This document shows positions 5,386 to 45,482 of a stretch of DNA of 64,000 bases, in pieces (the stretch's first letter is position 1; each line of letters begins with the position of its first letter). The stretch lies in assembly GCA_002762795.1 (NCBI GenBank), contig PCYA01000009.1:5059-69058 (forward strand). The letters are read 5' to 3'. Source of the stretch: Candidatus Woesearchaeota archaeon CG10_big_fil_rev_8_21_14_0_10_37_12. GTDB taxonomy: Archaea; Nanobdellota; Nanobdellia; Woesearchaeales; ARS49. The notes under the pieces are model-generated. The model saw only the letters and a program-made list of their open reading frames with translations, ran no database searches and had not been told where the DNA came from. Position numbers and translations under genes: made by a program.

Positions 5386-5793
5386 ATGCATGGGTATCAT
5401 ACAAATAAAATGCCACACCAATGCGTACGATGCAACAAAATGTATGAAGACGCAGCACAAGAACTTCTTTCAGGATGTGAATGCGGAGCACGACTATTCT
5501 TTTACATCAAAAAAGAAAAATTAGCAGTTGCAAAACAAGTATTGCAGCAAAATATGAACTTAGAACAAAAAAAACAAATGGAAGAAGACGTTCTTGACCT
5601 TGTAGGAAGCGACCACTCAGCACCTGTTGTTCTTGATTTTGAAAGTATACGCGTAACAAAACCAGGACAATACGAACTTGATTTAGTTAAATTATTCAAA
5701 CAAGACCCTTTAGTTTTCAAACTTGAAGAAGGAAAATACATCATTGATGTAGCACAAAGTTTTGAGAAACATAGAAAGAAACACAATCTTTAA
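5386..5793 (+). CDS. Zn-ribbon protein (DUF2072-like), third member of the archaeal GTPase triad
   Basis: CVRCN...17 aa...CECG Cys4 ribbon at the N-terminus. Confidence 0.5.
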   Translation: MHGYHTNKMPHQCVRCNKMYEDAAQELLSGCECGARLFFYIKKEKLAVAKQVLQQNMNLEQKKQMEEDVLDLVGSDHSAPVVLDFESIRVTKPGQYELDLVKLFKQDPLVFKLEEGKYIIDVAQSFEKHRKKHNL

Positions 5794-5849
5794 ATAGGAG
5801 GTTATGTTAATATCCTCTATTATATTATAAAAAATGAGGTGAAAATCAT

Positions 5850-6347
5850 ATGGAAGAAGAACATCGCGGACTAGCACTCATTGTTCTCGGAGTCATATCA
5901 GTCATCGCAGTCGTTGGCTTAGTATTAATGTTCTCTGGAGCAAAACAAAGCACAGGAGCATTATTTACCAACGTAGGAACAGGAGATTTACCTGTTTGCG
6001 ACAGCCCGTGTACACTTGCTGTAGCAGGAAGCGATCATGACAACCAAATGCAAAGTGATATGTTCAACCGAAGAGGATTCTATCTTGCAGGACAAACACA
6101 ATTCACATACGCACTTGGCGCGCCAGAAGCACGAACAGAAACAGTAAACTGCTGGTGCCCAACACAAAACAACGCAGGACCACAATTCAGAGCAACAGGA
6201 GAACCAGAATCACTTGTAGGCTACAGACACGACGCAGTGCCAGTAGACCAATACGGAAACATACAATACCCTGGTGACCCAGTAGGACAAGACGTCCCTG
6301 CACAAGAAAGACCAAATTATCCAATTGGAACAAACACCTGGTCTTAA
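5850..6347 (+). CDS. Secreted or membrane-anchored Cys-containing hypothetical protein. The N-terminus resembles an archaeal class III (type IV pilin-like) signal peptide
   Basis: EHRG|LALIVLGVISVIAVVGL fits the [KR]G-hydrophobic prepilin pattern. Confidence 0.4.
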   Translation: MEEEHRGLALIVLGVISVIAVVGLVLMFSGAKQSTGALFTNVGTGDLPVCDSPCTLAVAGSDHDNQMQSDMFNRRGFYLAGQTQFTYALGAPEARTETVNCWCPTQNNAGPQFRATGEPESLVGYRHDAVPVDQYGNIQYPGDPVGQDVPAQERPNYPIGTNTWS

Positions 6348-6692
6348 ATGCGTTTTATTTTTTATTCTCTTTTTCTTATTCTTTTTATTTCAACAATAAG
6401 CGTTATAACACTTGACACATTCACCGGAGCAATTGTAAACGACGCAGACTGCCCAGGAGGAACAACATATGCATTCTGCAGATTACCAGAAGAATGCAAC
6501 AGAGTAGCAGAAGCATGGCTAAACTCAGGACACTGGCCTGTTGCACAAGTAGAAACACATCAAGGAATGACATATTGTTTCAGACGAATGACTGCAGAAG
6601 AAAAAGAACAAGCACTTATTCGCAAACAATATGCTGGACAACCAATGAACTTCCCAAGAGAACGAATTGTGAGCCAAAGAAACAGCATTTAA
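6348..6692 (+). CDS. Small secreted hypothetical protein (signal peptide, Cys-containing)
   Basis: Hydrophobic N-terminus. Its start abuts the stop of the previous gene (TAAATG). Confidence 0.4.
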   Translation: MRFIFYSLFLILFISTISVITLDTFTGAIVNDADCPGGTTYAFCRLPEECNRVAEAWLNSGHWPVAQVETHQGMTYCFRRMTAEEKEQALIRKQYAGQPMNFPRERIVSQRNSI

Positions 6693-6714
6693 CCTTGCAA
6701 TTCAATAACAAATA

Positions 6715-7647
6715 TTACTTCTTTTCCTCAGAATTATCCATAACAAGCCTTGCAACATTATTCGTTGCAGTTATCATTGACTTAAACAACTCAGCAACAC
6801 CTGGAGAAAGCTCACTTGCAGAGGTAATCAAACCAACTCTGTCAAGAGCAACCTGCTCTGCAAGCTTTCTATCACTCACAAAATAAGCCTTCATTGCATC
6901 AAGATAACTCTTTTCAACACGCTCAAACATCTCCTTGATATTTGATTTTTTCTTTTCCTTACCAACATACTCTGCCAAATGTTTTGTATAATCAGCAAAA
7001 TTTTCCAGATTAATCGTTAAATAATAAAAATTGAGAATCTGATCATTAGACAGCTGAAATGAATCCGCAATATGCTTATTTGCCAAGGAACTTTTTAACA
7101 AACGCATAAGCAAAAAATACGCACGATTCACTTCCTCATCACGCATAATGACGCTGTCAATAAGCTTTGCATCATCCAATGCAGCAACACTATCCTGAAG
7201 CATACTACGCACAAGCATGTCCATCCTACGAACAGTTTTCTCAACATTCACATCCTTAACATTCAACAAATCCTTTGCAACAATACTCTTCGCAGACTGC
7301 TCAGCAACTTCCAGCGCAACAAAATCATGTAACATTTTCCGAATGTCTTTTGTTTTTGCAGCAATAGAAGAACCAGCAAGAACAATTGTATTGTAATTGT
7401 TAATGTACGCGCTCGTGATTTCTCTCTGTAAAGTGCTTAATTCTTTATTATCTACAGAAATTGTAATCTCTTTCTGAGGAAGAGGCTCATCGCCTTTATT
7501 TTCAGGAGTAATCAACAATTCATGATCTCCCCGCTCATGCAGATAAACCAAATCACCCTTTTTAAGACGATGTTTATCTAGCCATTCTTTTGGCAAAGAA
7601 ATGGTATGCGATGCCTGGCCAGCCTTAACTAACCGTCTAATAATCAT
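6715..7647 (-). CDS. phoU: Phosphate-uptake regulator PhoU homolog with an N-terminal SpoVT/AbrB DNA-binding domain
   Basis: The N-terminus MIIRRLVKAGQASHTISLPKEWLDKHRLKKGDLVYL is an AbrB swapped-hairpin, followed by about 230 aa of helical PhoU-like repeats. This is the typical archaeal architecture. Confidence 0.6.
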   Translation of the reverse strand: MIIRRLVKAGQASHTISLPKEWLDKHRLKKGDLVYLHERGDHELLITPENKGDEPLPQKEITISVDNKELSTLQREITSAYINNYNTIVLAGSSIAAKTKDIRKMLHDFVALEVAEQSAKSIVAKDLLNVKDVNVEKTVRRMDMLVRSMLQDSVAALDDAKLIDSVIMRDEEVNRAYFLLMRLLKSSLANKHIADSFQLSNDQILNFYYLTINLENFADYTKHLAEYVGKEKKKSNIKEMFERVEKSYLDAMKAYFVSDRKLAEQVALDRVGLITSASELSPGVAELFKSMITATNNVARLVMDNSEEKK

Positions 7648-15516: not shown

Positions 15517-15951
15517 CTATGGATCACCAGTGGTTCTTGACATATTGTGAAAAACAAAGAAATCATAAAGAAGAAATTTAGTTAATGCAAGAAATGCCAT
15601 AACAAGAGTGATGGAAAGAGCATAGTGAATATTCAACCAATCAACAAGTAGTTTTACCAAGTAAATATTTATTAAATAAAATGTAAATGTTAAAACACAA
15701 AAGCGTATAAATCTTGAACGGTGATAATCAGTCACGCGAAAAATAAATTTTGTTGCAACACCAAAATTAAATAAGGTTGTACATGTAGCCGCAATCACAT
15801 AAAATACATAATAATTTATCTTAAACCACTCAGTGAACGCATATGTGAAAAGAAGACTGAATAAATAACTTCCAACGCCACCAAAGGCATATCTTATGAA
15901 TAATTTCGATAAGTATTTATCTCTTACTAAACAAAGAGTTTTTTTTACCAT
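15517..15951 (-). CDS. GtrA-family small membrane protein
   Basis: 144 aa with 4 TM helices. It is adjacent to and overlaps the GT2 gene. Confidence 0.6.
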   Translation of the reverse strand: MVKKTLCLVRDKYLSKLFIRYAFGGVGSYLFSLLFTYAFTEWFKINYYVFYVIAATCTTLFNFGVATKFIFRVTDYHRSRFIRFCVLTFTFYLINIYLVKLLVDWLNIHYALSITLVMAFLALTKFLLYDFFVFHNMSRTTGDP

Positions 15952-18295: not shown

Positions 18296-18940
18296 TTATA
18301 AATTTTGCTATTACACGGGCTTTGTAGAAAGTCTTAACTAAATATGACCCTCTTGCTCACGCAAGAGGGGGTTGGAGTGTACCCCACCATGAGTAAGAAA
18401 GAACGTTTGGATAGAAAAATTAAGCGGTTATTTATGCGCGCGGGACACCCGCGCTGGTTCCATCATATGGGACCTAAGAAGTTTGAAACATGGATTCTTT
18501 ACTTGGGTATTATTGTTAAGCAAGTATACCGTTTATCGTATCGTAGAGCTTCACGATTTCTCGACGATTATTTCTGCATTAAAATACATTTTACAACTTT
18601 GCAGAAGGCAGCAAGGAGGCTGCCAAAAATTGTGTGGCAGGCTCTTCTGGCAGCAACAATAACTACTGATTTTGTGAAGCTTGCTGCTGCGGATGGAACT
18701 GGCTTTTCAAGAACGAACCCGAGCAATTATTATTTGAAAAGAATCGATCGGGACAGTCCCATTGGACGTCCCGTACAAGCAATAACGCTTGTAGATGTGC
18801 AAAAAAGAAAATTTTTGTCAGCAAATTTCTACGCCAAACCATACCATGAAGCACAACGCATTCCTGGTCTGCACAAGAAAAGCCCAGTCAAACCAGAAAT
18901 TTTGCTCATGGAATACACATTCAAAAGCTTTTTATACTGA
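18296..18940 (+). mobile_element. Truncated IS element. The terminal inverted repeat is GCTTTGTAGAAAGTCTTAAC plus the N-terminal about 190 aa of a DDE-type transposase. The ORF ends prematurely (pseudogene)
   Basis: The transposase-like sequence has AADGTGF. The terminal sequence is shared with the MITE at 25326-25495. It sits at the edge of a GC-rich island. Confidence 0.5.
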
Positions 18941-18945
18941 ATGGT

Positions 18946-20637
18946 GTGCAGTTATATGTTATGAGATCACTTCCAGTTATATCAGAATTAAAACAACAAG
19001 TGTTTTCGGTGAAGAGGGAGGAGTTGGACGCTGTGATTGTGGGTCCGGATCAGGGTGAGGATCCATATCAGGAAGGGTCTCGGAAGAACTTTAGTGGGCC
19101 ACCTCTTGGGGCTTATACCGTAGCTCATTTTGCTGAAGCTCAGGGCTTTAAAACGACAGTATGGGATCCTAACTTGGATGGGAAAAAAGGACTATATGAG
19201 TTAATTAGGGATAAAAGGCCTCCTGTCTTGGGATTTTCGATTTTGCATGAAACTCTTGAGGATGATGTAAGGAATATCGTTGCGGCAAAAGAGGCATCGC
19301 CGGATTCGACTATCGTAATCGGCGGCTTTGAAGCAACCTTGAATTGGAGGCAATTATTTACTGAAGTCCCAATGATTGACGTGGCGGTGCTGGGGATGGG
19401 GGAAAAGACATTTTCCTACATCTTGAGCAGTGCTCAGCAAGGACGTAGCGTTGAGTCTATTCCTGGTATTGTCTATAGAAAAGGACTAAATGATCTCGTT
19501 GAGACATCGCGTGAGAAATACACAAGCAGTGATTTCGTCGATGCGCTTAATAATCTTGATTTTGGAAGAGTCCCTTATCCGCGTTATTGGAATGTGATTA
19601 CCTCACAGGGTAGGGCAAGCTTAAACACGATCAGGATTATGCTCACGGCAAATGATTGCAACTATAATTGTTCCTTTTGTACAGTGCCAGAGTTTTGGTC
19701 GGGATCAGATAAACAGCGGATCCAAAGAGGACCGATTCTTGAGGATGATGTTTCTATCGCTCAGATAGTTCGCGCGGTAAGATTACAGCCAGATACGCAG
19801 GCATTCTATATTGAGGACGATAACTTTGGCATGAATCCTAAGAGGATGGAAAGTGTGGCGCGAGGGATTATCCGTGCGAAAGAAATAGGATATCTCCCTA
19901 AAGATATCAAATTCTTCTGCCAACTCCGTGCCGAGTCGCTTCTGGAACAAACGCTTAAAGTCATGTGCGATGCGGGTTTTACTGTGTTATCATTAGGTAT
20001 AGAATCCTTTTCCCCAAATGTGCTTAATGAATTGACCAAAGCAGGCCCGAAGGCTGGGGAAAAGACTGCCAAGAAATGGGATGAGCGCTTGAACATGATT
20101 CTTGGCGTGCCTGGACTGACTCCATCTATGTTTATGATCCTCTTTACTCCTCAATCAACGGTAGATGATGTCAAATTGACGATGGATACTACTCTGTATT
20201 GGGTCAATCGCGGGGTGAATATGAATCTCAATGGCTATATGATATCATATCCTGGGGCCCCTATGGAAGCAAATAAATATGAGACCTTGACGTATCGTCG
20301 TATCAATGTTCCAAACACAACTATTGACTTTAAGGTTACTGATTTGGTGATGCCTATCAATAAAGACGTGAAAAATCTCGCGGAAGAGGCGTATAAACGG
20401 CAGGAAAGAGCAGTGATGGATTTGAGTGATGAATACAACTTGCCTCGTGATAAAATTCCTTTGGTTATCGAGCATCTAGTCCTTTTTAGAGAAGTATATT
20501 CGCTTATCACTGACAAAAAAGGCCAAAAAAATGCCACCAATATGATTAATGAGCGCCTCAGTGAATTAACAAAGTCTGCTGGAGCACCTGTTAATAGCTA
20601 TACGCTTTCAGGAAGTGTTTCAGAACAGTCATGCTAA
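18946..20637 (+). CDS. B12-binding-domain radical SAM enzyme
   Basis: CNYNCSFC (CxxxCxxC) follows an N-terminal Rossmann-like B12-binding region. GC is about 50%. Confidence 0.7.
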   Translation: MQLYVMRSLPVISELKQQVFSVKREELDAVIVGPDQGEDPYQEGSRKNFSGPPLGAYTVAHFAEAQGFKTTVWDPNLDGKKGLYELIRDKRPPVLGFSILHETLEDDVRNIVAAKEASPDSTIVIGGFEATLNWRQLFTEVPMIDVAVLGMGEKTFSYILSSAQQGRSVESIPGIVYRKGLNDLVETSREKYTSSDFVDALNNLDFGRVPYPRYWNVITSQGRASLNTIRIMLTANDCNYNCSFCTVPEFWSGSDKQRIQRGPILEDDVSIAQIVRAVRLQPDTQAFYIEDDNFGMNPKRMESVARGIIRAKEIGYLPKDIKFFCQLRAESLLEQTLKVMCDAGFTVLSLGIESFSPNVLNELTKAGPKAGEKTAKKWDERLNMILGVPGLTPSMFMILFTPQSTVDDVKLTMDTTLYWVNRGVNMNLNGYMISYPGAPMEANKYETLTYRRINVPNTTIDFKVTDLVMPINKDVKNLAEEAYKRQERAVMDLSDEYNLPRDKIPLVIEHLVLFREVYSLITDKKGQKNATNMINERLSELTKSAGAPVNSYTLSGSVSEQSC

Positions 20638-20678
20638 TTCGGTCCCATACTCGATGTCACCACAAAATATTAAGCTAG

Positions 20679-21392
20679 GTGAACATTCTCCTTTCTTTAA
20701 AGATGGAAAAAACAACAATACTCTGGGATGCAGGAGATGCAATATATCCTTTCAACATTGATTTAGCCTTTTCCAGGCTTGCAGCTAATTCAACAAAAGG
20801 ATTAAGCGTAGAAACTATTAAAGAAATTCTCTTTGGCAAAACATACGAAAGCCATGAATACAATGCAGGAATAACAGAAGACTATTATCTTGGAAAAGAA
20901 AGTGACGAACAATTTTACGAACGGGCAAAAAAATCATTAGGCTTAACATTTTCAATTGAGGAATTTGAGCGAGCATATTCAGACATTTTCACAGTAAATT
21001 CACGAATTGCAAGATTTATAGAACACGCCAACCAACAAGGATACGCGCAAGCAGTTGTTTCAAGCACAAACCCATTTCACTGGAAGGCAATGCGCAAAAC
21101 AATAGATCCTCAAACAGGAAAACCATTTGACATGGAAGCAATAATTAGCGAACGAAACATCATTACAACATACAAAGTAGGAGTAAAAAAACCAGACGCT
21201 GCACTCTTTGATCGTGCACTTGCAGTTGTTGGCAGAACAAAGGAGCAAGCAGTGTACGTTGATGATGTTTTAACTTATGTTGAAGCAGCGCGACAATATG
21301 GGCTTTCAGTAATACATATGAACACAAAAGCAAAAGATCCGCAAGGAAACTGTCTGAACGCATTAGAGGAACTTGGTGTAATCATAGAGTAA
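20679..21392 (+). CDS. HAD-superfamily hydrolase
   Basis: The N-terminal ILWDAGDAIYP replaces the DxD motif (weak). C-terminal YVDDV motif. About 237 aa. Confidence 0.4.
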   Translation: MNILLSLKMEKTTILWDAGDAIYPFNIDLAFSRLAANSTKGLSVETIKEILFGKTYESHEYNAGITEDYYLGKESDEQFYERAKKSLGLTFSIEEFERAYSDIFTVNSRIARFIEHANQQGYAQAVVSSTNPFHWKAMRKTIDPQTGKPFDMEAIISERNIITTYKVGVKKPDAALFDRALAVVGRTKEQAVYVDDVLTYVEAARQYGLSVIHMNTKAKDPQGNCLNALEELGVIIE

Positions 21393-21423
21393 ACATTAAA
21401 TAACTCTTTTTTATACAACATTT

Positions 21424-21531
21424 ATGCTTGATATTTTTGAACTTTTTGTGCCAGGAAGACTTTGCATATTAGGAGAATATGCAGATCTTGCAGCAGCACA
21501 TTGCTCAAAAAACTCTGCTATTGGAATATGA
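21424..21531 (+). pseudogene. N-terminal fragment of a GHMP-family sugar kinase (galactokinase/mevalonate-kinase-like motif)
   Basis: A 35-aa ORF. MLDIFELFVPGRLCILGEYADL matches PGR(V/L)xL(I/G)GEHxDY. It then terminates. Confidence 0.35.
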
Positions 21532-21687
21532 CACATACTTGTTATACCAACAAGCCAAGGCACACACGCACAAGTAATAACAAAAAGAAAAACAACAAAA
21601 ACTCATAGAATTACTCCAAAGAGAACTTGATGTAGAACTTTTTGGATTGCTGAGTAGTAGTTTGTAGTGAGCAGACAGAAATTATTT

Positions 21688-22716: not shown

Positions 22717-23610
22717 TCATTTTTTGCGATTTAACAACTCTTCAAGATAAGCGCGGAACTCATCCTTCATATCTTCTCGTTCAAGAGCAAACTCGACAAG
22801 AGCTTTAACATAAGTTATTTTATTGCCAATATCATATCTTACGCCTGTTTTATCACAAGCAAGAACAGTCTGTTTTTTGCACAATATGTTGATAGCATCA
22901 GTTATCTGAATTTCTCCACGATTAAGCTCAACTTTATCTATTAAATCAAAAATTTCAGGCGGCAAAACATACCTGCCGGTCAATGCGAGATTTGAAGGCG
23001 CAGTTTCTACACTTGGCTTTTCCACCATACCTTTTGATTTGTAGATATCCTTTTCAGCTTCAAAAGGCGCAGGATCAACAACACCACAATTTACAACCTC
23101 GCTCATTGGCACTTGCTCCACACCAATAACTGGCTTCTTGTATCTCTCATACACATCACACAATAGTTTCATAGAAGGAACTGAGTTTTTCATTATTACA
23201 TCCCCAAGCAAAACAGCAAAATCATCATCGCCAACAAAAGTGCGTCCATAGCGTATCGCATCACCAAGCCCGTTTTGTTCCGGCTGTACAACATACTGAA
23301 TATTTGCCAACTCGGAAATTTTCTTAACACTCTCAAACAGAGCTTTATCTTTTTTCTCAAGAATAGCCATTAATTCAGGAGAATAATCAAAATGCTTCTT
23401 TATTATCTCTTTTGACTTGCTTGTAACAATAAGAATATCAGTAATACCAGCAGCAACAGCTTCCTCAACAACAACTTGAATAACAGGAGTATCAATAAGA
23501 GGCAACATTTCTTTAGGTATTGCTTTGGTAGCAGGAAGAAACCTTGTTCCAAAACCTGCTGCAGGAATAACTGCTTTACGTATCATACTAAAAAAAGAAA
23601 AAGAACGCAT
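22717..23610 (-). CDS. galU: UTP--glucose-1-phosphate uridylyltransferase
   Basis: AVIPAAGFGTRFLPATKAIPKEMLP N-terminal signature. Confidence 0.8.
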   Translation of the reverse strand: MRSFSFFSMIRKAVIPAAGFGTRFLPATKAIPKEMLPLIDTPVIQVVVEEAVAAGITDILIVTSKSKEIIKKHFDYSPELMAILEKKDKALFESVKKISELANIQYVVQPEQNGLGDAIRYGRTFVGDDDFAVLLGDVIMKNSVPSMKLLCDVYERYKKPVIGVEQVPMSEVVNCGVVDPAPFEAEKDIYKSKGMVEKPSVETAPSNLALTGRYVLPPEIFDLIDKVELNRGEIQITDAINILCKKQTVLACDKTGVRYDIGNKITYVKALVEFALEREDMKDEFRAYLEELLNRKK

Positions 23611-23626
23611 TTAAAATCTTATCGTC

Positions 23627-25354
23627 TCATTCAACTTTATAAATCCAAGTTTTACTATTTGGAAGAGTACCAACAAGTATCTTATCCAACTTTGCTCTCG
23701 GATAACTATCAAGAAAAACCCTAGCATCATAATCGGCAATGTCTGATAAAGGACCTGTTTCTAAACGCTCATGCACAACAATATAACGCACAGAAGGCCT
23801 ATTTTTAGGATAACTAAAACTCCCTGTAGAAAATTCAGGCTTGTTAAAACCTGTTTTAATGACTTCTTTTAGCAACTCTTCTTTCTCAGGAAGAAGCTCA
23901 ACATACACCCTTTTTTCCTTGTCATTTTTCAAAAAGAAAAAAGCCATCTGATACTGCCTTGAGGTAATCACTGTAAAATCTCCTTTAGTGTTATCAAGCA
24001 TAAACTTAATAGCCCCTTCATAATCGTGCTGCATTGATTGAATATGATTATTATTTGCAATCGTAAACAAAAACAAGCCTGTTTGACCTGCAACAAGTAA
24101 AATTACCAATACTGCAACTGAAAAAATCGCTTTCTTTGGCAACATAAACACACCCCTTGCAGCAAAAACAGAAAGCAAAACTGTAACAGGAATCATATAC
24201 CTTGGAATAAGCCCATGAAAAACAAAAATAACAAAATTAACAAGCGCATAAAAAACAATACACAACTCAACAATGCTGTAACTTTTTGACTCAAACCATT
24301 TTTTCCTCCAAAAAACTCCAAGCAAAATAAACGGCAGAAGAATCCAATTCAAGAATACAGAAGTAATCACAACAACTGCTTTTTGCAACTTACTTAAATC
24401 ATATCGATTCATAATAAGATCTTTCTTATAAGCAGGCAAAGCATAAGAAAACTCAAGATCTTCTGCAGTAATAAAACCAGATCTTTGCTCACTAGATCCA
24501 TAAAAATTCTCTAAATTAGTAGCTGACCTTCCAAGCAGCGTTGAAACTCCAAAATTTACAAAAACAATCTCGCGCGCTATCAGAGGCGTTAAAACCAAAA
24601 AAAACAATGCCAAAGAAACAACCAATGACGTAATAACTTTCTTTCTCGCTATCCAACTAACAAAATCTTTTTTTATCAAAAATACAATCAACAAAACAGG
24701 AACAATCAACAATACTTGTCTTTTAAAAAGCACACCAAGCGCTAAAAATACAGCCAGCCAATACAAATGTTTTGCATTTTCTTTTTTACAATACCTGTTA
24801 AACTGATATATACAAAGAAGGGTAAAAAGCGCAACACCATTCTCAAGCATGGGAACAGCAGCTTCATAGAAAAATAGCGTTCCAAAACCTGCAAAAATTG
24901 CCGCTAAAAAACCTGTTTTTTCGTCATAAATATCACTTGCAAGCCTATACACCATCCACAAAACAAGCAAACTCATTATGAGCGGAACAATCATCATACT
25001 CCAATAAGAAACCCCAAAAAACAAAAACACTATTGTTAAAAGAATAACCTGCAAAGGCTCCCAATCTGCTAAACCTGAAAAAATTTTATAATGCGCATGA
25101 CCATCTATAAACTTCTGAGTAAAATCACCAAGGGAAGTCATATTTACCAATTCTTCACTAATAATATTAGCTGTAAACCCTGCTGCAAGCGCTCTTTGAT
25201 ACGAATTAGATATAGTCATATCAATTTGCGTTCCGATTACTATCTGTAAAACTGCATAAAAAACAAGAAAAATCAACATTATTTTTTTCATAACACTTAG
25301 CACTCCAAAACAATTTATTAACCTTTTGGCTCTGTAGAAAATCTTCGCTAACAC
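23627..25354 (-). CDS. Polytopic membrane glycosyltransferase (ArnT/PMT-like) with a C-terminal extracytoplasmic domain
   Basis: About 11 TM helices in the N-terminal 400 aa, then a soluble C-terminus. Confidence 0.4.
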   Translation of the reverse strand: MLAKIFYRAKRLINCFGVLSVMKKIMLIFLVFYAVLQIVIGTQIDMTISNSYQRALAAGFTANIISEELVNMTSLGDFTQKFIDGHAHYKIFSGLADWEPLQVILLTIVFLFFGVSYWSMMIVPLIMSLLVLWMVYRLASDIYDEKTGFLAAIFAGFGTLFFYEAAVPMLENGVALFTLLCIYQFNRYCKKENAKHLYWLAVFLALGVLFKRQVLLIVPVLLIVFLIKKDFVSWIARKKVITSLVVSLALFFLVLTPLIAREIVFVNFGVSTLLGRSATNLENFYGSSEQRSGFITAEDLEFSYALPAYKKDLIMNRYDLSKLQKAVVVITSVFLNWILLPFILLGVFWRKKWFESKSYSIVELCIVFYALVNFVIFVFHGLIPRYMIPVTVLLSVFAARGVFMLPKKAIFSVAVLVILLVAGQTGLFLFTIANNNHIQSMQHDYEGAIKFMLDNTKGDFTVITSRQYQMAFFFLKNDKEKRVYVELLPEKEELLKEVIKTGFNKPEFSTGSFSYPKNRPSVRYIVVHERLETGPLSDIADYDARVFLDSYPRAKLDKILVGTLPNSKTWIYKVE

Positions 25355-25495
25355 TACTGGTCATTGGCTTCTTGCCTGCACTTATATAAATAAAGAGCAG
25401 ACATTCACCGACGGGGTCACCCCCCTTGTCAGCTAAAAACAACAACCAAAAGAGGCTCGCCTGATGCCAATGACCTACACTTTCTACAGAGTCTA
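25326..25495. mobile_element. Miniature inverted-repeat element (about 170 bp) with roughly 25-bp terminal inverted repeats related to the IS end at 18296
   Basis: Left end GGCTCTGTAGAAAATCTT...GGTCATTGGC, right end GCCAATGACC...CTTTCTACAGAGTC. There is an internal GGGGTCACCCC palindrome. Confidence 0.55.
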
Positions 25496-25505
25496 ACCTT
25501 TTGAT

Positions 25506-37581: not shown

Positions 37582-40500
37582 TCATCTTATGCTTTCAACT
37601 CTGATTTTAAACTTCAGAGTTTTATTACCAAGCGGATGTGCATTTGGATCAACTCCATACCCTTCTTTAGGAGGAACAGTTATCGTTTTAATTTCTCCCG
37701 GCATCATCCCTTCTATTCTTTTTTCAAACCCAGGAATTAACTGATCATTTCCTATAATAAAAGCAAGAGGTTTTGTTTCAAATGAATCAAAATCTGAATC
37801 AGAAGAAACATTCTTGCTCCGCCAATCAACAATACTGCTGTCAAACACACCATCATCAGTCCAACCAATGTAATTCAAAGCTACTTGAGCTCCAGATATT
37901 ACAGATGTTTTAGGCAACAACCCCTGAGGAACATATGCATCTTTCCCTTCCCAATCAACTTTCCAGACATAAACAGGGCCGCCAAATAACTGATTATCTC
38001 TAGCAAACAAATCAAAATGCTTTAAACCAAGACCATTCATATAAAATAATCGTGTAAACATGCTATCTGCAAGCGCATCATTTGCAGCAATAGCACTCAT
38101 TCCATTTTCAACAGGCCAAACAATAAATGTTAATTGATCATTACCTTCACTTGATGTAAACACCTGCTTTTCTCCCTTTTCATTATATATAATAACTTTT
38201 TTAGCAAGAGCTTTTCCAGAATCAACAGACAGTTCTCCTCTACCATTCGTAATATCAATCTGCAAACTACCACAAACCAACAAAGATCCTGAAACTTTAC
38301 AACCTTGAACATCATGTGTTACATATCCAGGATATCCACTTATCCAACCATTTGCAGAATCTTCAGACGTCAAAGCTTTTGCTTCTTTGTAAATCTCCTT
38401 CGATTTTTCTTCAGTCCAATTAAAACGATTCATCATTTTTGCAACAGCATCTTTTTCAGGTAAATGTCTCCACTCAAGCCAAACTTCAGCTTTTTTGAAA
38501 TCCCACATACCAAAATGAGACCAAACACCAGCCTTGCCAATCATATCAGGACTAACAATAAAATAATTTTCAGGAGGATCACAATGAGTAAACTGAAGTA
38601 TATCCTCAGACAGGCCTGCATCCCGGAGAGTATCTCTTGCAGAAGACTTATTCTGCATAATAATAGTCTTAATAATTTCAACTGTTTTAAAAGAATCATT
38701 TAATTTTTCAAAAATCATTCCTTGCGCAGTATTACTTCCGCAATCATTCAATCTTAAAATACCAATCGCTTCTCTCTCATCTTCTGTTTGCAACACTCGC
38801 CCAATCCAATGAGCCTGAGGAGATGTTTGTGAAGCACCATCAAAAGTAACCTGCCTATCAGCAATATACTTGAAATGATGACCAAAATCCCACCAAGAAG
38901 TTATGATTGCATCAGGAGCACTCTCTTCTTTTATTTTTGTCAACACAGCCCACCAAGCATCATTAACCATAGGGATACTTCCACGAACAGAACTATACGA
39001 TTGTGCAGCCATGTTGCTCCCACCAAGTGCAGGATTAATAATCATCAAACTAAAAATACCCAAAAGCACCACGCCAGTAATATATTTGTGAATATGCAAC
39101 TGTCTTTTTCCAAAATCTGACAAATACTTGTAACCAAATCCTGCAGCAGCACCAAACGCTATTGCCACAGCAGGACCAAGAAGCAAAGTAAACCGCGCAC
39201 CCTTCAAAGAAGCATACACTGAACCAACAAACCACAACGCCAAAATCAATGAATAAACAAACTCACGCTTATTTTTCTGATCTCGCTTAGAAAAACTCAA
39301 CAAAATGCCAAAGCATGCAACAACAAAAACCAACATGCCTCCAACAGAACTAATTATCATTGAAAAAGAAGCGGGATTTAATTCTGCAACAGTTGTTAGT
39401 ACGTTTGGCCAGATAGTTCCTCCTGCAGCAGATTTAATCGTTCTGAAATTGAGTGCATTATAAAAAATACCATTCCAAAATGCACGAACACCAATTGTAA
39501 ATAAAGACACTACAAACCCACTAACAAATATACACAAAGCAGCTATAAAATGTTTTTTTAAATGAGTCTCTTCCAAAAGAGAAACAAATCCATGCCTGAA
39601 CTTTTTCCTATTCAAAACAATTTCAATTATAATTACAAGACCAACAGCTCCAAAAATAATGTCTGCGAAAAAAAACCAGCCACTCCAAAAACTTGCGAAC
39701 AAACTAATAGCAACACCTGTTCCGCACGCAAACATAATTTGCTTTTTCCAAGACTCTGCAAAAAAAGTCTCAAACAATAAAAACAATATTAACGCTGGAA
39801 AAAACACAACATACATATCAGTATCAATATGCCCCCAAGGCGTACGAGTCATTATTGCAGGAATCAAACCAAGAACTATAACTGCAAAGAAACCGCTTAG
39901 CTTACCACCAAGCCTATATCCAGCAAAGAAAATAAAAATCAACGACAAAAAAATCAGAAAAATACCTATGTAAGCTGCCGAATCCATAAAAGGAACATTT
40001 TTGTTAACCAAAGAATTGACTTTGTAAAATCCTGCAATAACATAACTATGCCAGCTATTGTCAACACCCGTGCCAACAGGAGCAGACATATGATTATCCC
40101 AAGGAACACCATCATGAAGTTCATCATAATTGTGTCCAGTATTCAAAACATTTCGCGCAAGCCTCAAATAATGATAAGGATCAATATCAGGCATGTATGA
40201 ATATAACTTTCCATTTTCTTCATAAGAAAAATGATCACGCACCTGCTTTGCCAACCTCCCTTTTTCTACATCTAGAGTGGCTTTGTTTTCCTGCTGAAAT
40301 TTAAGCTTCAAATCATTAATCACTTTTTGCCTATTCGCTTCAGGCAAATTAGGATACCTTTGCTGTGCAATAGAAGCAACCTGCTGCTGGATAAAATTAT
40401 CTACATTTGAAGAAGCAACATTTTCTGCTATATCCAAATTTTTCGTTTGCATACGCATCCAAATACTGCCCCAAGGAGCATTGCCTTCACTAGGAACAAA

Positions 40501-40599
40501 CTGCAATGCTAATACGAGAAGTAACGTGAACAACACAGCGTGTTTTTGGACAAATGAAACTGTAGTCTTTGCTTTTGCCCAAATCGCATCCTTTTCCAT
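37582..40599 (-). CDS. aglB: Oligosaccharyltransferase AglB/STT3 homolog fused to a C-terminal FKBP-type peptidyl-prolyl cis-trans isomerase domain
   Basis: 13 or more TM helices and the WWDFGHHF (WWDYG) motif encoded at about 38883-38897. The last 110 aa are ALNYIGWTDDGVFDSS...PLAFIIGNDQLIPGFEKRIEGMMPGEIKTITVPPKEGYG, which is FKBP. Confidence 0.8.
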   Translation of the reverse strand: MEKDAIWAKAKTTVSFVQKHAVLFTLLLVLALQFVPSEGNAPWGSIWMRMQTKNLDIAENVASSNVDNFIQQQVASIAQQRYPNLPEANRQKVINDLKLKFQQENKATLDVEKGRLAKQVRDHFSYEENGKLYSYMPDIDPYHYLRLARNVLNTGHNYDELHDGVPWDNHMSAPVGTGVDNSWHSYVIAGFYKVNSLVNKNVPFMDSAAYIGIFLIFLSLIFIFFAGYRLGGKLSGFFAVIVLGLIPAIMTRTPWGHIDTDMYVVFFPALILFLLFETFFAESWKKQIMFACGTGVAISLFASFWSGWFFFADIIFGAVGLVIIIEIVLNRKKFRHGFVSLLEETHLKKHFIAALCIFVSGFVVSLFTIGVRAFWNGIFYNALNFRTIKSAAGGTIWPNVLTTVAELNPASFSMIISSVGGMLVFVVACFGILLSFSKRDQKNKREFVYSLILALWFVGSVYASLKGARFTLLLGPAVAIAFGAAAGFGYKYLSDFGKRQLHIHKYITGVVLLGIFSLMIINPALGGSNMAAQSYSSVRGSIPMVNDAWWAVLTKIKEESAPDAIITSWWDFGHHFKYIADRQVTFDGASQTSPQAHWIGRVLQTEDEREAIGILRLNDCGSNTAQGMIFEKLNDSFKTVEIIKTIIMQNKSSARDTLRDAGLSEDILQFTHCDPPENYFIVSPDMIGKAGVWSHFGMWDFKKAEVWLEWRHLPEKDAVAKMMNRFNWTEEKSKEIYKEAKALTSEDSANGWISGYPGYVTHDVQGCKVSGSLLVCGSLQIDITNGRGELSVDSGKALAKKVIIYNEKGEKQVFTSSEGNDQLTFIVWPVENGMSAIAANDALADSMFTRLFYMNGLGLKHFDLFARDNQLFGGPVYVWKVDWEGKDAYVPQGLLPKTSVISGAQVALNYIGWTDDGVFDSSIVDWRSKNVSSDSDFDSFETKPLAFIIGNDQLIPGFEKRIEGMMPGEIKTITVPPKEGYGVDPNAHPLGNKTLKFKIRVESIR

Positions 40600-43022: not shown

Positions 43023-45482
43023 ATGAACCAAAAAATACTCACAACATTAATCGTATTCTTACTAGCAATAACACCAGCAACAGCAGACATGTTCGGCGGA
43101 CAATTTGCAGGCGGACAAGGAATTGGCTCTGGACAAATCGCAGGCGGACAAGGCATAGGATCAGGACAGCTTGCAGGCGGACAAGGAATCGGAGCTGGAC
43201 AACTAGCAGGCGGATTTGGAATTGGCGGACAATTAGCAAGTGGACAAGGCATAGGATCAGGAATGACCGGACAAATGCCAAGCAGCAACTTTGTCACACA
43301 AAACAGCATACAAAACACAAACACATTCACCACACAAAACCTCAACAACAACTTGTTAAACAACTTTGAAACAAGAACAGACACACCACGCACAACAACA
43401 CAAACACTTCAACAAATAACCACAACTGGAACAACGCTGCCAAGAATAACAAGCTCACCAGTCACAACAGCGCGAGTAAACTTCAGATATCACTATCAAA
43501 TCATTGCAACACAACCAAACAACCAACCATTAGCATACTTAATTCTAAACGGACCAAACGGAATGAGCGTAACAAACACAGGACGAGTAAGCTGGACACC
43601 AAACCAAACAGGACAATATAACATACAAATAGGAGTAAAAACACAAGGAACAAACTTAGTAACACCACAATCATACACAATCACAGTCACAGAAAACCAA
43701 GCACCAGAAATCACAAGCCAACCAACACTAACAGCAATTGTTGGACAAGAATACGTTTACCAGATAACAGCAACAGATGCTGACGGAGACAGAACAGGAT
43801 CATTACCAGTGCAATCACCACAAGGAACAAACTTCAACATACAAACACAAACACTAACCTGGACACCAACAGCAAATCAAGTTGGACAACACACATTCAA
43901 AATATTAGTGGGAGACAGCTTTACAACAACAGAACAACAATTCACAGTAACAGTCAGATCAAGTTCATCTAATAACAACGGATCAAATGGTGGTGCAGAT
44001 GGTGGTTCAGACAACACAAACAGAGCACCAGTCATCACAAGTACACCAATAACAAACGCAGCAGCAGGAACAAGATACACATACGATGTTGAGGCAACTG
44101 ATGCAGACAATAACTTACTTACCTATGCACTCTTAAGCTACCCACAAAGCATGCGCATCAACTTCCAAACAGGAGTAATTACATGGATACCGACAACAGC
44201 ACAAGCAGGAAACAATAACGTTCGCGTTGTTGTAAGCGATGGCAGAACATCAACAACACAAGACTTCATAATCAACGTAGCAGCAAATGCCTTGCCACAA
44301 TTTGTGTCAAGCCCAATAAACAATGCGATTGTTAACCAACCATACACATACAATGTTGATGCAATTGATCCAAACAATGACAATATTGTGTACGCACTAC
44401 CAACAAAACCAACAGGAATGACAATCAATCCGCTTACAGGAATCATAACATGGATACCAACAAGTACAGGATTCTTCAACGTCACAGTAAGCGCAACAGA
44501 CGGAGGACAACCAGTACTACAACTATTCACAATTCATGTTCAATCACAAAACACAATCAACAACCATCCGCCAGTCATCACATCAACACCAATCAGAACA
44601 GCAACAGCAGGAACACAGTATTTGTATGTAGTACTTGCAGATGATGCAGACGGAGACACAAAAACATTTAACGTAAACGGACCTTCTGGAATGACAATCA
44701 ACAGCTTAGGAGTTATCAGCTGGACACCAAACAATACACAAACAGGAAATCATCCAGTAAGTGTTTCAGTAACAGACGGAACAGACACAGCATCACAAAC
44801 ATACACGCTAACAGTACAAACTCAAAGTCAAGGGTCTGCCAGTTGGCAAACAATTCCAACAGTAACAATCAATCAAGGAGCAACCTCAGGAACCATTATT
44901 TTAAGCAACGTTCTAGACAGATGCACAGATCCAGCAAACCCATTTGTAAATGTACAAATACTAAGCAACACAGCAGACTTACAATTCACAATTGACAGTA
45001 GAAATGATCTAAAACTCATATACATACATCCAAACGTTGTTGGAACACGACAAGTAAGATTGGCATGCAACGGTGTAGCAACAAGCTTTAACCTAAACAT
45101 ACAAGCAACAAACAACCAAAACAACAACGGAAACAATAATGGAAATACAGGAAGCAACAGTAATTCTGAAATCACAGTAAACTCAATCATCATACCAAAC
45201 GCGTATGATATAAGTCCAGGAAGCAGAATACCAATTACAGTAAGCGTAAGAAAAACAACAGGACCAAGAATAGAAGACGTACAAATAACAGCAACAATAC
45301 AAACACTTGGTGCACGAGCAACAAGCAGTGTTTTTGACATCGAAGGAAGCACATCTGTCAGGAGAACAGTATTCCTCCAAATTCCAGGAAGTGCTGATCC
45401 AGGCATATACACTGTGCGCATATCCATCGATGGAAGAAATGGCGTGCATGAGCAACTACACAGACAAATAACAATACGATAA
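43023..45482 (+). CDS. Large secreted surface protein or adhesin with a GGQGIGSGQ(I/L)A repeat tract and 5 or more cadherin-like/Ig-like (He_PIG/CADG-type) domains
   Basis: Signal peptide. Repeated (Y/L)TY(D/N)V(E/D)A(T/I)D(A/P)D(G/N) motifs. T/N/Q-rich. Confidence 0.55.
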   Translation: MNQKILTTLIVFLLAITPATADMFGGQFAGGQGIGSGQIAGGQGIGSGQLAGGQGIGAGQLAGGFGIGGQLASGQGIGSGMTGQMPSSNFVTQNSIQNTNTFTTQNLNNNLLNNFETRTDTPRTTTQTLQQITTTGTTLPRITSSPVTTARVNFRYHYQIIATQPNNQPLAYLILNGPNGMSVTNTGRVSWTPNQTGQYNIQIGVKTQGTNLVTPQSYTITVTENQAPEITSQPTLTAIVGQEYVYQITATDADGDRTGSLPVQSPQGTNFNIQTQTLTWTPTANQVGQHTFKILVGDSFTTTEQQFTVTVRSSSSNNNGSNGGADGGSDNTNRAPVITSTPITNAAAGTRYTYDVEATDADNNLLTYALLSYPQSMRINFQTGVITWIPTTAQAGNNNVRVVVSDGRTSTTQDFIINVAANALPQFVSSPINNAIVNQPYTYNVDAIDPNNDNIVYALPTKPTGMTINPLTGIITWIPTSTGFFNVTVSATDGGQPVLQLFTIHVQSQNTINNHPPVITSTPIRTATAGTQYLYVVLADDADGDTKTFNVNGPSGMTINSLGVISWTPNNTQTGNHPVSVSVTDGTDTASQTYTLTVQTQSQGSASWQTIPTVTINQGATSGTIILSNVLDRCTDPANPFVNVQILSNTADLQFTIDSRNDLKLIYIHPNVVGTRQVRLACNGVATSFNLNIQATNNQNNNGNNNGNTGSNSNSEITVNSIIIPNAYDISPGSRIPITVSVRKTTGPRIEDVQITATIQTLGARATSSVFDIEGSTSVRRTVFLQIPGSADPGIYTVRISIDGRNGVHEQLHRQITIR

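Follow-up and report, generated by a model that had tools for sequence, protein, structure and literature searches.

A probably foreign cobalamin-binding radical SAM gene at an insertion-sequence remnant in the surface-glycan cluster of a Woesearchaeota archaeon

Results

An insertion-sequence stump and an intact radical SAM gene within a surface-glycan cluster

We analysed a 64-kb stretch of DNA from a Candidatus Woesearchaeota (DPANN) archaeon (64,000 nt of contig PCYA01000009.1; hereafter "the window", whose coordinates are used throughout), which has an overall GC content of 34.7%. By Pfam annotation, ~9-40 kb of the window is a single large surface/N-glycan biosynthesis cluster (~30 kb). 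Inside this cluster lies the region considered here (Table 1), with the remnant of an IS5-family insertion sequence (IS), an intact gene for a cobalamin (B12)-binding radical S-adenosylmethionine (SAM) enzyme, a gene for a HAD-superfamily phosphatase, and a 35-codon open reading frame (ORF). An earlier reading made from the sequence alone (the sequence-only reading) had described the region as a GC-rich, horizontally acquired island whose arrival or associated deletion destroyed a sugar kinase. The core of that description, a foreign B12 radical SAM gene headed by a dead IS, is right; the rest is mostly mis-bounded and over-interpreted.

Table 1. Features of the region and of its surroundings, in window coordinates
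Feature	Coordinates	Strand	Remarks
IS remnant	18318..18950	+	633 bp, about the first 625 of 893 nt; GC 0.419; from DNA alignment to full copies on contigs L007, L008 and L009
Left terminal inverted repeat, GGCTTTGTAGAAAGTC	18318..18333	+	2 mismatches to the family consensus, GGCTCTGTAGAAAATC
Disrupted DDE transposase ORF, 198 aa	18344..18940	+	Likely true start ATG 18389; NF033579
Indel in transposase gene	18913..18928	+	16 nt in place of 6 consensus nt, net +10
TATA-box-like octamer, TTTTTATA	18929..18936	+	From IS sequence TTTTGATG; ~28 nt upstream of the radical SAM ATG
Cobalamin-binding-domain radical SAM enzyme, class B type, 558 aa	18961..20637	+	Intact; PF02310, PF04055; the one clearly foreign gene
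HAD-superfamily phosphatase, YihX (glucose-1-phosphatase)-like, 229 aa	20703..21392	+	Pfam HAD_2; native neighbour
35-codon ORF with galactokinase-signature-like PGRLCILGEYAD	21424..21531	+	In the 295-nt spacer between the convergent HAD and 324-aa protein genes; possibly a chance ORF
324-aa protein with Nudix-box-like segment	21688..22662	-	Conserved partner of the HAD phosphatase
GalU (UTP-glucose-1-phosphate uridylyltransferase)	22717..23610	-	TIGR01099, E=1.5e-96; native cluster gene
Miniature inverted-repeat transposable element (MITE)-like element, 166 nt	25328..25493	+	Between the PMT_2 and GT2 genes; exact left repeat, right repeat with 3 mismatches

The terminal repeat that the sequence-only reading placed at the head of the island is real, and lies 22 nt inside the start that it gave. 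In DNA alignments of three full copies, the complete element is ~893 nt long with terminal repeats of 16-17 nt, the left one being (C)GGCTCTGTAGAAAATC; in intact copies the right repeat is the reverse complement of the left and overlaps the C-terminus of the transposase (~995-1010 in L008, 4805-4820 in L026). The transposase ORF in the window matches the NCBIfam IS5 transposase model (E=1.4e-12, profile positions 35-177 of 289), and a Pfam search of the 198-aa ORF gave no match. Its 205 homologues are mostly 266-290 aa long and carry PF01609; most of them lie on ~1-kb contigs, as expected of a repeated element. The premature termination of the transposase was also correctly recognised, and has two components, a frameshift and a 3' truncation. 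The region of the first catalytic Asp (AADGTGF) is present, but the frame breaks at codon ~190 and in-frame protein homology ends at LLM, immediately before the second catalytic Asp (DKGFD), such that this Asp, the catalytic Glu and the C-terminal ~95 aa are missing. The net insertion of 10 nt shifts the frame onto a TGA at 18938-18940. Homology to the IS resumes at 18929-18950, with 18 of 22 positions matching L008 722-742, a score equalled by 1 of 300 shuffled sequences; hence the true break in the IS is at ~18950, and the last ~270 nt of the element are gone. A clean truncation at 18910, which we had considered, was revised on the strength of this resumption after the 16-for-6-nt replacement.

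Compared with other IS5-family (DDE_Tnp_1, PF01609) elements, the element in the window belongs to a lineage with the same transposase, 16-17 nt repeats, a length of ~0.9 kb and a MITE sharing its ends, but the copy itself is a frameshifted stump without a right end, the second Asp or the Glu. As a functional IS5 element it retains a homologous DDE transposase, and lacks a complete triad and frame, a pair of repeats and a target-site duplication. Elsewhere in the 64 kb we found no right IS end, no right repeat other than that of the MITE-like element, no remnant of the transposase C-terminus and no duplicate of the left flank. On these grounds we rejected two arrangements, one with the radical SAM gene as cargo between two IS ends and one with that gene inserted into an IS. 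Between the left repeat and the likely transposase start there is a conserved inverted repeat (GACCCTCTTGC...GCAAGAGGGGG) at 18346-18371 (within 18344-18388), which occurs in all aligned IS copies and may be a regulatory hairpin in the 5' untranslated region of the element.

The radical SAM gene was described in the sequence-only reading as encoding a 563-aa CxxxCxxC protein with an N-terminal B12-binding-like domain. Gene, motif and domain stand, and the length is 558 aa: the start is the ATG at 18961, which gives a product identical to database protein COV18_02075 (P0001), and the GTG at 18946 selected by an ORF finder would add five residues that the database protein lacks. The B12-binding (E=3.8e-14) and Radical_SAM (E=4.7e-12) domains both score above their Pfam cut-offs, and the cysteines of the cluster motif CNYNCSFC (C233-x3-C237-x2-C240) are invariant across 26 homologues. 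An AlphaFold model built with 26 homologues (pLDDT 84.6, pTM 0.84) can be superposed on both domains of TsrM, OxsB and TokK; a Foldseek search with this model retrieved TsrM, OxsB, TokK, CysS, MgmA and AprD4 (E=1e-17 to 4e-13, TM 0.52-0.61), and TokK and TsrM are also the sequence matches in the PDB. Domains, motif and predicted fold together give good support for placing the protein in the cobalamin-dependent radical SAM class, cobalamin binding and chemistry themselves being predictions. Like the class B enzymes TsrM, TokK, CysS, MgmA and OxsB, the protein has an N-terminal B12-binding Rossmann domain followed by a CxxxCxxC radical SAM barrel, but it is at most 17% identical to any solved or named member. 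Its 18 NCBIfam matches are weak, partial and to class B families (BchE, KedN5, HpnJ, MJ_1487, ApyD, PhpK, HpnR, the lipid "ladder" radical SAM family and others), and a place in any named class B subfamily is not supported by these comparisons. Literature searches returned nothing specific to this family, which comprises two members, both from DPANN archaea, and a bacterial sister family that is ~28% identical.

The compositional anomaly is confined to the IS remnant and the radical SAM gene

The segment from 18318 to 20637 has a GC content of 42.8% (0.428-0.43), the highest in the window among segments of its size. The sequence-only reading had put the GC content at about 50% from 18.3 to 20.7 kb and about 32% elsewhere. 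Its sample count was accurate, since 19021-19080 does contain 33 G+C in 60 nt, but 18296-20700 averages 42.5%, with a maximum of 49% in 200-nt windows, and the remainder of the window is at 34.3%. The deviation is clearest at third codon positions (GC3), where the transposase fragment (0.412) and the radical SAM gene (0.419) rank as the top two of 49 ORFs (mean 0.27, standard deviation 0.046; +3.2 standard deviations). By contrast, the HAD phosphatase gene (0.265), the gene for the 324-aa protein (0.200) and galU (0.268) are host-like. Because the HAD phosphatase gene is host-like, we place the end of the island at ~20.64 kb; an anomaly is present where the sequence-only reading saw one, but it does not extend to 20.7 or 21.5 kb. 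The GC and tetranucleotide plot which that reading had proposed as a check thus gives a divided answer, with a GC3 outlier at the transposase and radical SAM genes and a weak tetranucleotide signal. The compositional anomaly is real, but smaller and weaker than first described.

The strongest tetranucleotide deviation in the window lies elsewhere, at 42.5-45.5 kb (z=4.5; AT skew reaches 0.47), where the 819-aa product of an ORF at 43023-45482 (+) is a surface protein that carries He_PIG/Big_9 Ig-like repeats. Genes at 41-45 kb have GC3 values of 0.23-0.29, and their high GC content comes from codon positions 1 and 2; the deviation at 42.5-45.5 kb therefore reflects amino-acid or repeat composition and not horizontal transfer.

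The radical SAM gene has a single close homologue, in a GC-richer archaeon

Among 5.8 billion clustered proteins, the radical SAM enzyme has one close homologue (P0002), which is 73% identical over 418 aa and comes from a metagenome-assembled genome of Candidatus Nanoarchaeia; the remaining homologues are at most 30% identical. A search for relatives of the enzyme had been suggested as a way to find its donor lineage, and this homologue, in a Nanoarchaeia glycan operon, is what it yielded. The contig that carries it (L001) has a GC content of 49%, and the gene is compositionally at home there, with a GC3 of 0.50 beside neighbours at 0.52-0.59. No orthologue of the radical SAM gene occurs at 15 related Woesearchaeota loci that share the HAD phosphatase, which are not syntenic with the window. 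Two other contigs with the radical SAM protein belong to the same population as the window and are 100% identical over the region. When we applied tests for genomic islands, the two ORFs of 18318-20637 deviated in composition and the HAD and 35-codon ORF region did not, and the distribution was patchy, with the closest relative in another lineage. A search of IMG/VR for viral or mobile-element carriers of the IS or of the radical SAM gene found none.

We conclude with considerable confidence that the radical SAM gene is of foreign origin and stands beside a dead IS with the anatomy described above. The proposal that a GC-richer segment with a dead IS and a B12 radical SAM gene was acquired horizontally is upheld by the GC3 outlier, by the homologue in a 49%-GC contig and by the lack of orthologues at the 15 HAD loci. 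With moderate confidence, we favour a fuller account in which a single gene was acquired horizontally within a glycan cluster, at the stump of an IS. This account seems best to us because it joins the high GC3 of the gene, its restriction to two members, its compositional fit to a GC-richer DPANN genome and its location at a dead IS within a mosaic glycan cluster. The donor was probably a GC-richer DPANN archaeon, since the only close relative resides in a 49%-GC Nanoarchaeia glycan operon.

Several observations weigh against this account. In raw GC content, the segment at 41-43.3 kb (0.423) nearly equals the supposed island, and the tetranucleotide distance of the latter is only modest (z=1.33). 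Between the radical SAM gene and its homologue, dN is 0.20, nucleotide identity is 71% and dS is saturated at ~2; both copies are evidently under purifying selection, which like the invariant cluster cysteines speaks for a functional gene, but the saturation of dS implies that any transfer from precisely that lineage is not recent, so that the donor lineage is approximate. No close relative free of the island, and no empty site, was found. Likewise, scans of genome and metagenome collections with single proteins (the 324-aa protein and the HAD phosphatase) uncovered no close relatives, and an exact look-up of the 324-aa protein returned no record. Finally, the island boundaries show no right inverted repeat, target-site duplication or tRNA. 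For this last reason the mechanism of integration is inferred only: illegitimate recombination or an IS-adjacent deletion may have fused an internal part of the IS to the beginning of the radical SAM gene.

Some of these observations would suit a gene that is old, vertically inherited or long resident, with a GC content set by gene-specific constraints, next to which an IS landed later and decayed. Besides the weak tetranucleotide deviation and the saturated dS, which speaks against a recent transfer from the lineage of the sole orthologue, GC at codon positions 1 and 2 is also somewhat high in the radical SAM gene, in part reflecting amino-acid content, and the IS family is resident in this genome. 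An old gene should, however, have drifted to the GC3 of its host, rather than lying 3.2 standard deviations above the host mean in a deviation shared by the IS fragment only. Moreover, the distribution of the gene is extremely patchy, with two members, and an IS breakpoint that is only 10 nt away from the ATG suggests a rearrangement connected with its arrival or capture. We therefore regard long residence as very unlikely.

The IS stump may supply the 5' region of the radical SAM gene

The IS breakpoint at ~18950 is 10 nt before the ATG of the radical SAM gene, which consequently has no upstream region of its own. Under horizontal acquisition at the stump, the IS would supply the 5' region of the gene, including the TATA-like octamer (Table 1) at about -28. 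The expected position of an archaeal TATA box for a leaderless mRNA is ~28 nt upstream of the ATG. By its letters and position, TTTTTATA is a candidate promoter of the radical SAM gene, and expression from this octamer or from the promoter of the transposase is plausible.

A second derivative of the same IS family, the MITE-like element at 25.3 kb, bears on the order of events. It is flanked by a 9-nt direct repeat, TAACCTTTT (25319-25327 and 25494-25502), and folds as a hairpin (z=-3.6); the flanks of intact IS copies differ from this, with a duplication of ~3 nt (AAC, in L008) or no clear duplication (L026). On contig L007, a related element with the same ends and the same central CCGACGGGG.CACCCCCCT core follows the full IS (~1305-1480). 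The MITE-like element shows activity of the IS family in this genome that was not tied to the radical SAM gene. Copies of the family are common among low-GC metagenomes of DPANN-type archaea, and an intact 905-nt copy was found in an archaeal contig of 34% GC.

An alternative is that the IS fragment and the radical SAM gene arrived together, already fused in the donor, with no IS of this kind residing earlier in this genome. The two parts are directly joined and nearly identical in GC3, as a joint arrival would have it. However, every sample of the IS family had a GC content of 39-46%, also the one from a 34%-GC host; the GC content of the fragment is therefore uninformative on origin, and we discarded it as evidence of co-transfer. 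Two further points run counter to pre-fused arrival, namely the independent MITE-like derivative in the same genome and the distance to the closest IS copies, whose transposases are 82-85% identical at the protein level. On balance we consider a pre-fused arrival somewhat unlikely, and prefer capture of the incoming gene at an IS already present.

The HAD phosphatase belongs to a native nucleotide-sugar module

The sequence-only reading was right that a HAD phosphatase follows the radical SAM gene: PF13419 (33.2 bits) and PF00702 (30 bits) both score above cut-off, and the length of 229 aa is agreed upon by the source gene call and the starts of homologue alignments. Residues W8-D9, with the Asp of motif I, and D187-D188 are invariant in the subfamily. 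The best PDB match is YihX (E=2e-8), and the best NCBIfam match is glucose-1-phosphatase, at 51.6 bits against an equivalog cut-off of 295. Motif I of the protein in the window, WDAGDA, resembles that of YihX, FDLGNV, in which Gly replaces the usual second Asp. Despite this likeness, the score is far under the equivalog cut-off, and the protein belongs to a small, Woesearchaeota-centred subfamily with 9 representatives at E<1e-24 among 1.84 billion proteins.

Alignment-based scans located relatives of the HAD phosphatase in 3 Woesearchaeota genomes and on 12 metagenome contigs, which are the 15 distant loci referred to above. These relatives sit in nucleotide-sugar modification clusters, together with a 4,6-dehydratase/epimerase, a TylCIII-type C-methyltransferase, a DegT aminotransferase, cupins, a hexapeptide acetyltransferase, a GT2, Wzx, a second HAD paralogue and a GalU-like nucleotidyltransferase. 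The locus on contig L034 reads GT2 (47% identical to the GT2 at 15945 in the window), a 316-aa homologue of the 324-aa protein, HAD phosphatase, GFO_IDH_MocA. The 316-aa protein is 28% identical to the 324-aa protein (E=1e-22) and contains a Nudix-box-like KELGEEVGL; the stop of its gene (424-1374) overlaps the start of the HAD phosphatase gene (1368-2048), indicating translational coupling; in the window the corresponding pair is convergent. We conclude that the HAD phosphatase and 324-aa protein genes are a conserved native pair, and that the HAD phosphatase gene is not cargo. The 324-aa protein has no match in Pfam, NCBIfam or the PDB, and no significant similarity to a 286-aa unannotated protein that precedes the HAD phosphatase in other loci. 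The presence of a Nudix-like enzyme and a sugar-1-phosphatase beside GalU suggests a step of nucleotide-sugar hydrolysis or salvage. Judged by their composition and relatives, the HAD phosphatase, the Nudix-like 324-aa protein and GalU are native nucleotide-sugar genes.

The 35-codon ORF gives little sign of a destroyed kinase

Just beyond the HAD phosphatase gene, the sequence-only reading recognised the N-terminal stub of a GHMP sugar kinase. The ORF exists (its translation begins MLDIFELFVPGRLCILGEYADL), but its sole match is to Pfam GalKase_gal_bdg (PF10509), at E=0.071 and 13.1 bits against a cut-off of 23.1. Neither the PDB nor NCBIfam gave a match at E values up to 10, and the 68-aa read-through product has no homologue among the clustered proteins searched for the radical SAM enzyme. 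N-termini of GalK gave E=1.3-1.7 in tblastn, which is a lead only. A 77-aa JGI gene call that covers the ORF (L006 8464-8707, corresponding to window 21424-21667, with identical DNA) requires read-through of two TGA codons, and was set aside as a genetic-code artefact. We consider it improbable that the ORF is a genuine kinase remnant.

The status of this ORF matters for the reading in which the IS, the radical SAM gene and the HAD phosphatase gene were inserted as a unit, destroying a GHMP sugar-1-kinase that fed GalU and leaving the 35-aa stub behind. The three genes are indeed co-oriented and closely spaced. Furthermore, PGRLCILGEYAD is at residues 10-21 of the ORF, which is where short archaeal GalK proteins carry the galactokinase signature, and beyond the TGA the frame remains open for another 32 codons. 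Against insertion as a unit, the host-like GC3 of the HAD phosphatase gene sets it apart from the radical SAM gene, its relatives are in Woesearchaeota sugar clusters, and its counterpart on L034 is coupled to the homologue of the 324-aa protein; these same observations remove the HAD phosphatase from the island, of which it had been taken to be a member. As for the kinase, no GHMP ATP-binding motif (motif II, PxGSGLGSSA) follows the ORF in any frame in the ~200 nt before the next gene. The 15 related HAD loci have no GHMP kinase in their vicinity, none stands beside the HAD phosphatase in L014-L016 and L034, and nothing separates the two genes of the pair on L034. ORFs as short as this one also abound locally, with 84 of at least 30 aa in this 10 kb. 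With a sub-threshold motif, no homologue and no GHMP kinase at related loci, the destruction of a sugar-1-kinase is not borne out, and we regard insertion of all three genes as one unit as highly improbable. Single-gene acquisition at the IS stump, next to native nucleotide-sugar genes, is the reading that we retain.

Neighbouring genes of the cluster

The glycan cluster begins with RmlB-, RmlD- and RmlA-like genes, followed in order by genes for a GMC-type oxidoreductase, a methyltransferase, two GT2s, GtrA and a GT-C-like membrane protein, after which comes the region described above. Beyond it are, in order, the genes for the 324-aa protein, GalU, a PMT_2 GT-C, a GT2, a Wzx flippase, methyltransferases, a CDP-alcohol phosphatidyltransferase, GT4s, asparagine synthase and AglB/STT3. 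The last of these (37582-40599, -) is a 1005-aa AglB/STT3 oligosaccharyltransferase fused to a C-terminal FKBP-type peptidyl-prolyl isomerase domain; its gene ends the cluster and lies directly before those for large Ig-domain surface proteins at 40.7-50 kb.

Discussion

Surface-glycan clusters, such as those for O-antigen, capsule and archaeal agl systems, are mosaic, and gain single modification genes by horizontal transfer, often beside an IS. The cluster described here follows this pattern, in that one foreign, putative modification gene lies by an IS remnant among glycosyltransferase, flippase and nucleotide-sugar genes and AglB. It differs in having a DPANN host, and in that the gained gene encodes a B12 radical SAM enzyme and not the usual glycosyltransferase, acetyltransferase or SAM-dependent methyltransferase. 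IS-associated gene gain in glycan clusters is routine, and our findings do not overturn current understanding. Rather, they provide a well-delimited example in which a genome-reduced DPANN archaeon would diversify its surface glycan via one foreign gene caught at a dead IS.

The lineage of this radical SAM enzyme is tied to glycan synthesis by three independent genomic contexts: the cluster in the window, the operon of the Nanoarchaeia homologue and the operon of the bacterial homologues. In the Nanoarchaeia operon, the radical SAM gene accompanies those for an rfaE-domain-II-like adenylyltransferase (ADP-heptose synthase-like), a heptosyltransferase-like GT9, a GT4 and a methyltransferase. 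The bacterial homologues are ~540 aa long and 27-29% identical to the protein in the window (Steroidobacteraceae and others; L002-L004 and L010-L013, for example L002 8001-17623). They share one invariant operon, in the order radical SAM enzyme, 479-aa GT2_3, methyltransferase, NosD/beta-helix protein, two unannotated proteins, GGDEF/EAL protein, which looks like an uncharacterised exopolysaccharide system linked to cyclic di-GMP.

In the class B mechanism, a [4Fe-4S] cluster cleaves SAM reductively to yield a 5'-deoxyadenosyl radical, which abstracts a hydrogen atom; methylcobalamin then hands a methyl group to the substrate, and a second SAM re-methylates the cobalamin. GenK, GenD1 and HpnJ are sugar-acting class B radical SAM enzymes. 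We propose that the enzyme in the window C-methylates a sugar, because of the glycan contexts, the class B fold, and the C-methyltransferases and B12 radical SAM enzymes near the same HAD family. The radical would take hydrogen from an unactivated sugar carbon, in a nucleotide-sugar or a lipid-linked glycan residue, and methylcobalamin would then supply the methyl group, giving a C-methylated sugar in the cell-surface glycan. Given predicted fold and gene neighbourhood, we see the case for a glycan-modifying role as evenly balanced; C-methylation specifically is a tentative suggestion, on the doubtful side of even.

Four considerations count against these functional proposals. The substrate and the chemistry are assigned through guilt by association. 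Not every class B enzyme methylates, since OxsB, BchE and HpnJ carry out other chemistry. The best NCBIfam match, BchE, scores 69.9 bits against a cut-off of 481, and every subfamily model falls 5- to 30-fold below its cut-off. Lastly, an enzyme of this class would need cobalamin, which a reduced-genome archaeon may be unable to obtain. The foreign enzyme might instead act on something other than a sugar, such as a membrane lipid, a cofactor or a peptide, or use non-methylating or P-methylating class B chemistry, such as ring contraction or cyclisation. The best partial matches would accommodate this, as they include a cyclase (BchE), HpnJ, which acts on the hopanoid sugar head group, the lipid "ladder" radical SAM family and the P-methylase PhpK; among the fold matches, OxsB and AprD4 are not methylases, and no subfamily cut-off is reached. 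On the other hand, all three genomic contexts, in the window, around the archaeal orthologue and around the bacterial homologues, are glycan or polysaccharide operons, and sister clusters hold a bona fide family of sugar C-methyltransferases near the HAD phosphatase. We therefore think a non-glycan substrate or a chemistry of this other kind unlikely, and continue to prefer modification of a glycan sugar.

If the radical SAM enzyme is active, the organism depends on external B12, which bears on exchange between host and symbiont. The family is essentially unstudied, and its three glycan contexts offer a concrete substrate hypothesis to biochemists who work on class B radical SAM enzymes. A bolder scenario combines several elements: the enzyme would found an uncharacterised class B family that gives a sugar in archaeal N-glycans or surface glycans a C-methyl group or other radical modification, working with the HAD/Nudix-like module, with an IS co-opted as promoter, with cobalamin that the genome-reduced symbiont scavenges from its host, and with recurrent displacement of TylCIII-type C-methyltransferases by B12 radical SAM enzymes that are not orthologous to one another. 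Taken as a whole, this combination is speculative, and we would not expect all of it to hold.

Two further observations concern the loci of the HAD subfamily. One gene away from a HAD homologue on contig L016, a gene at 5393-6853 (the same as L035 3396-4853) encodes a 486-aa B12 radical SAM protein that is non-orthologous to, and 25% identical to, the one in the window. At other loci (L014, 3110-4345; L015, 5508-6731; L031; L033), a TylCIII-type SAM-dependent sugar C-methyltransferase is encoded one or two genes from the HAD phosphatase. The occurrence of a B12 radical SAM enzyme or a TylCIII-type C-methyltransferase near the same HAD subfamily may represent non-orthologous displacement.

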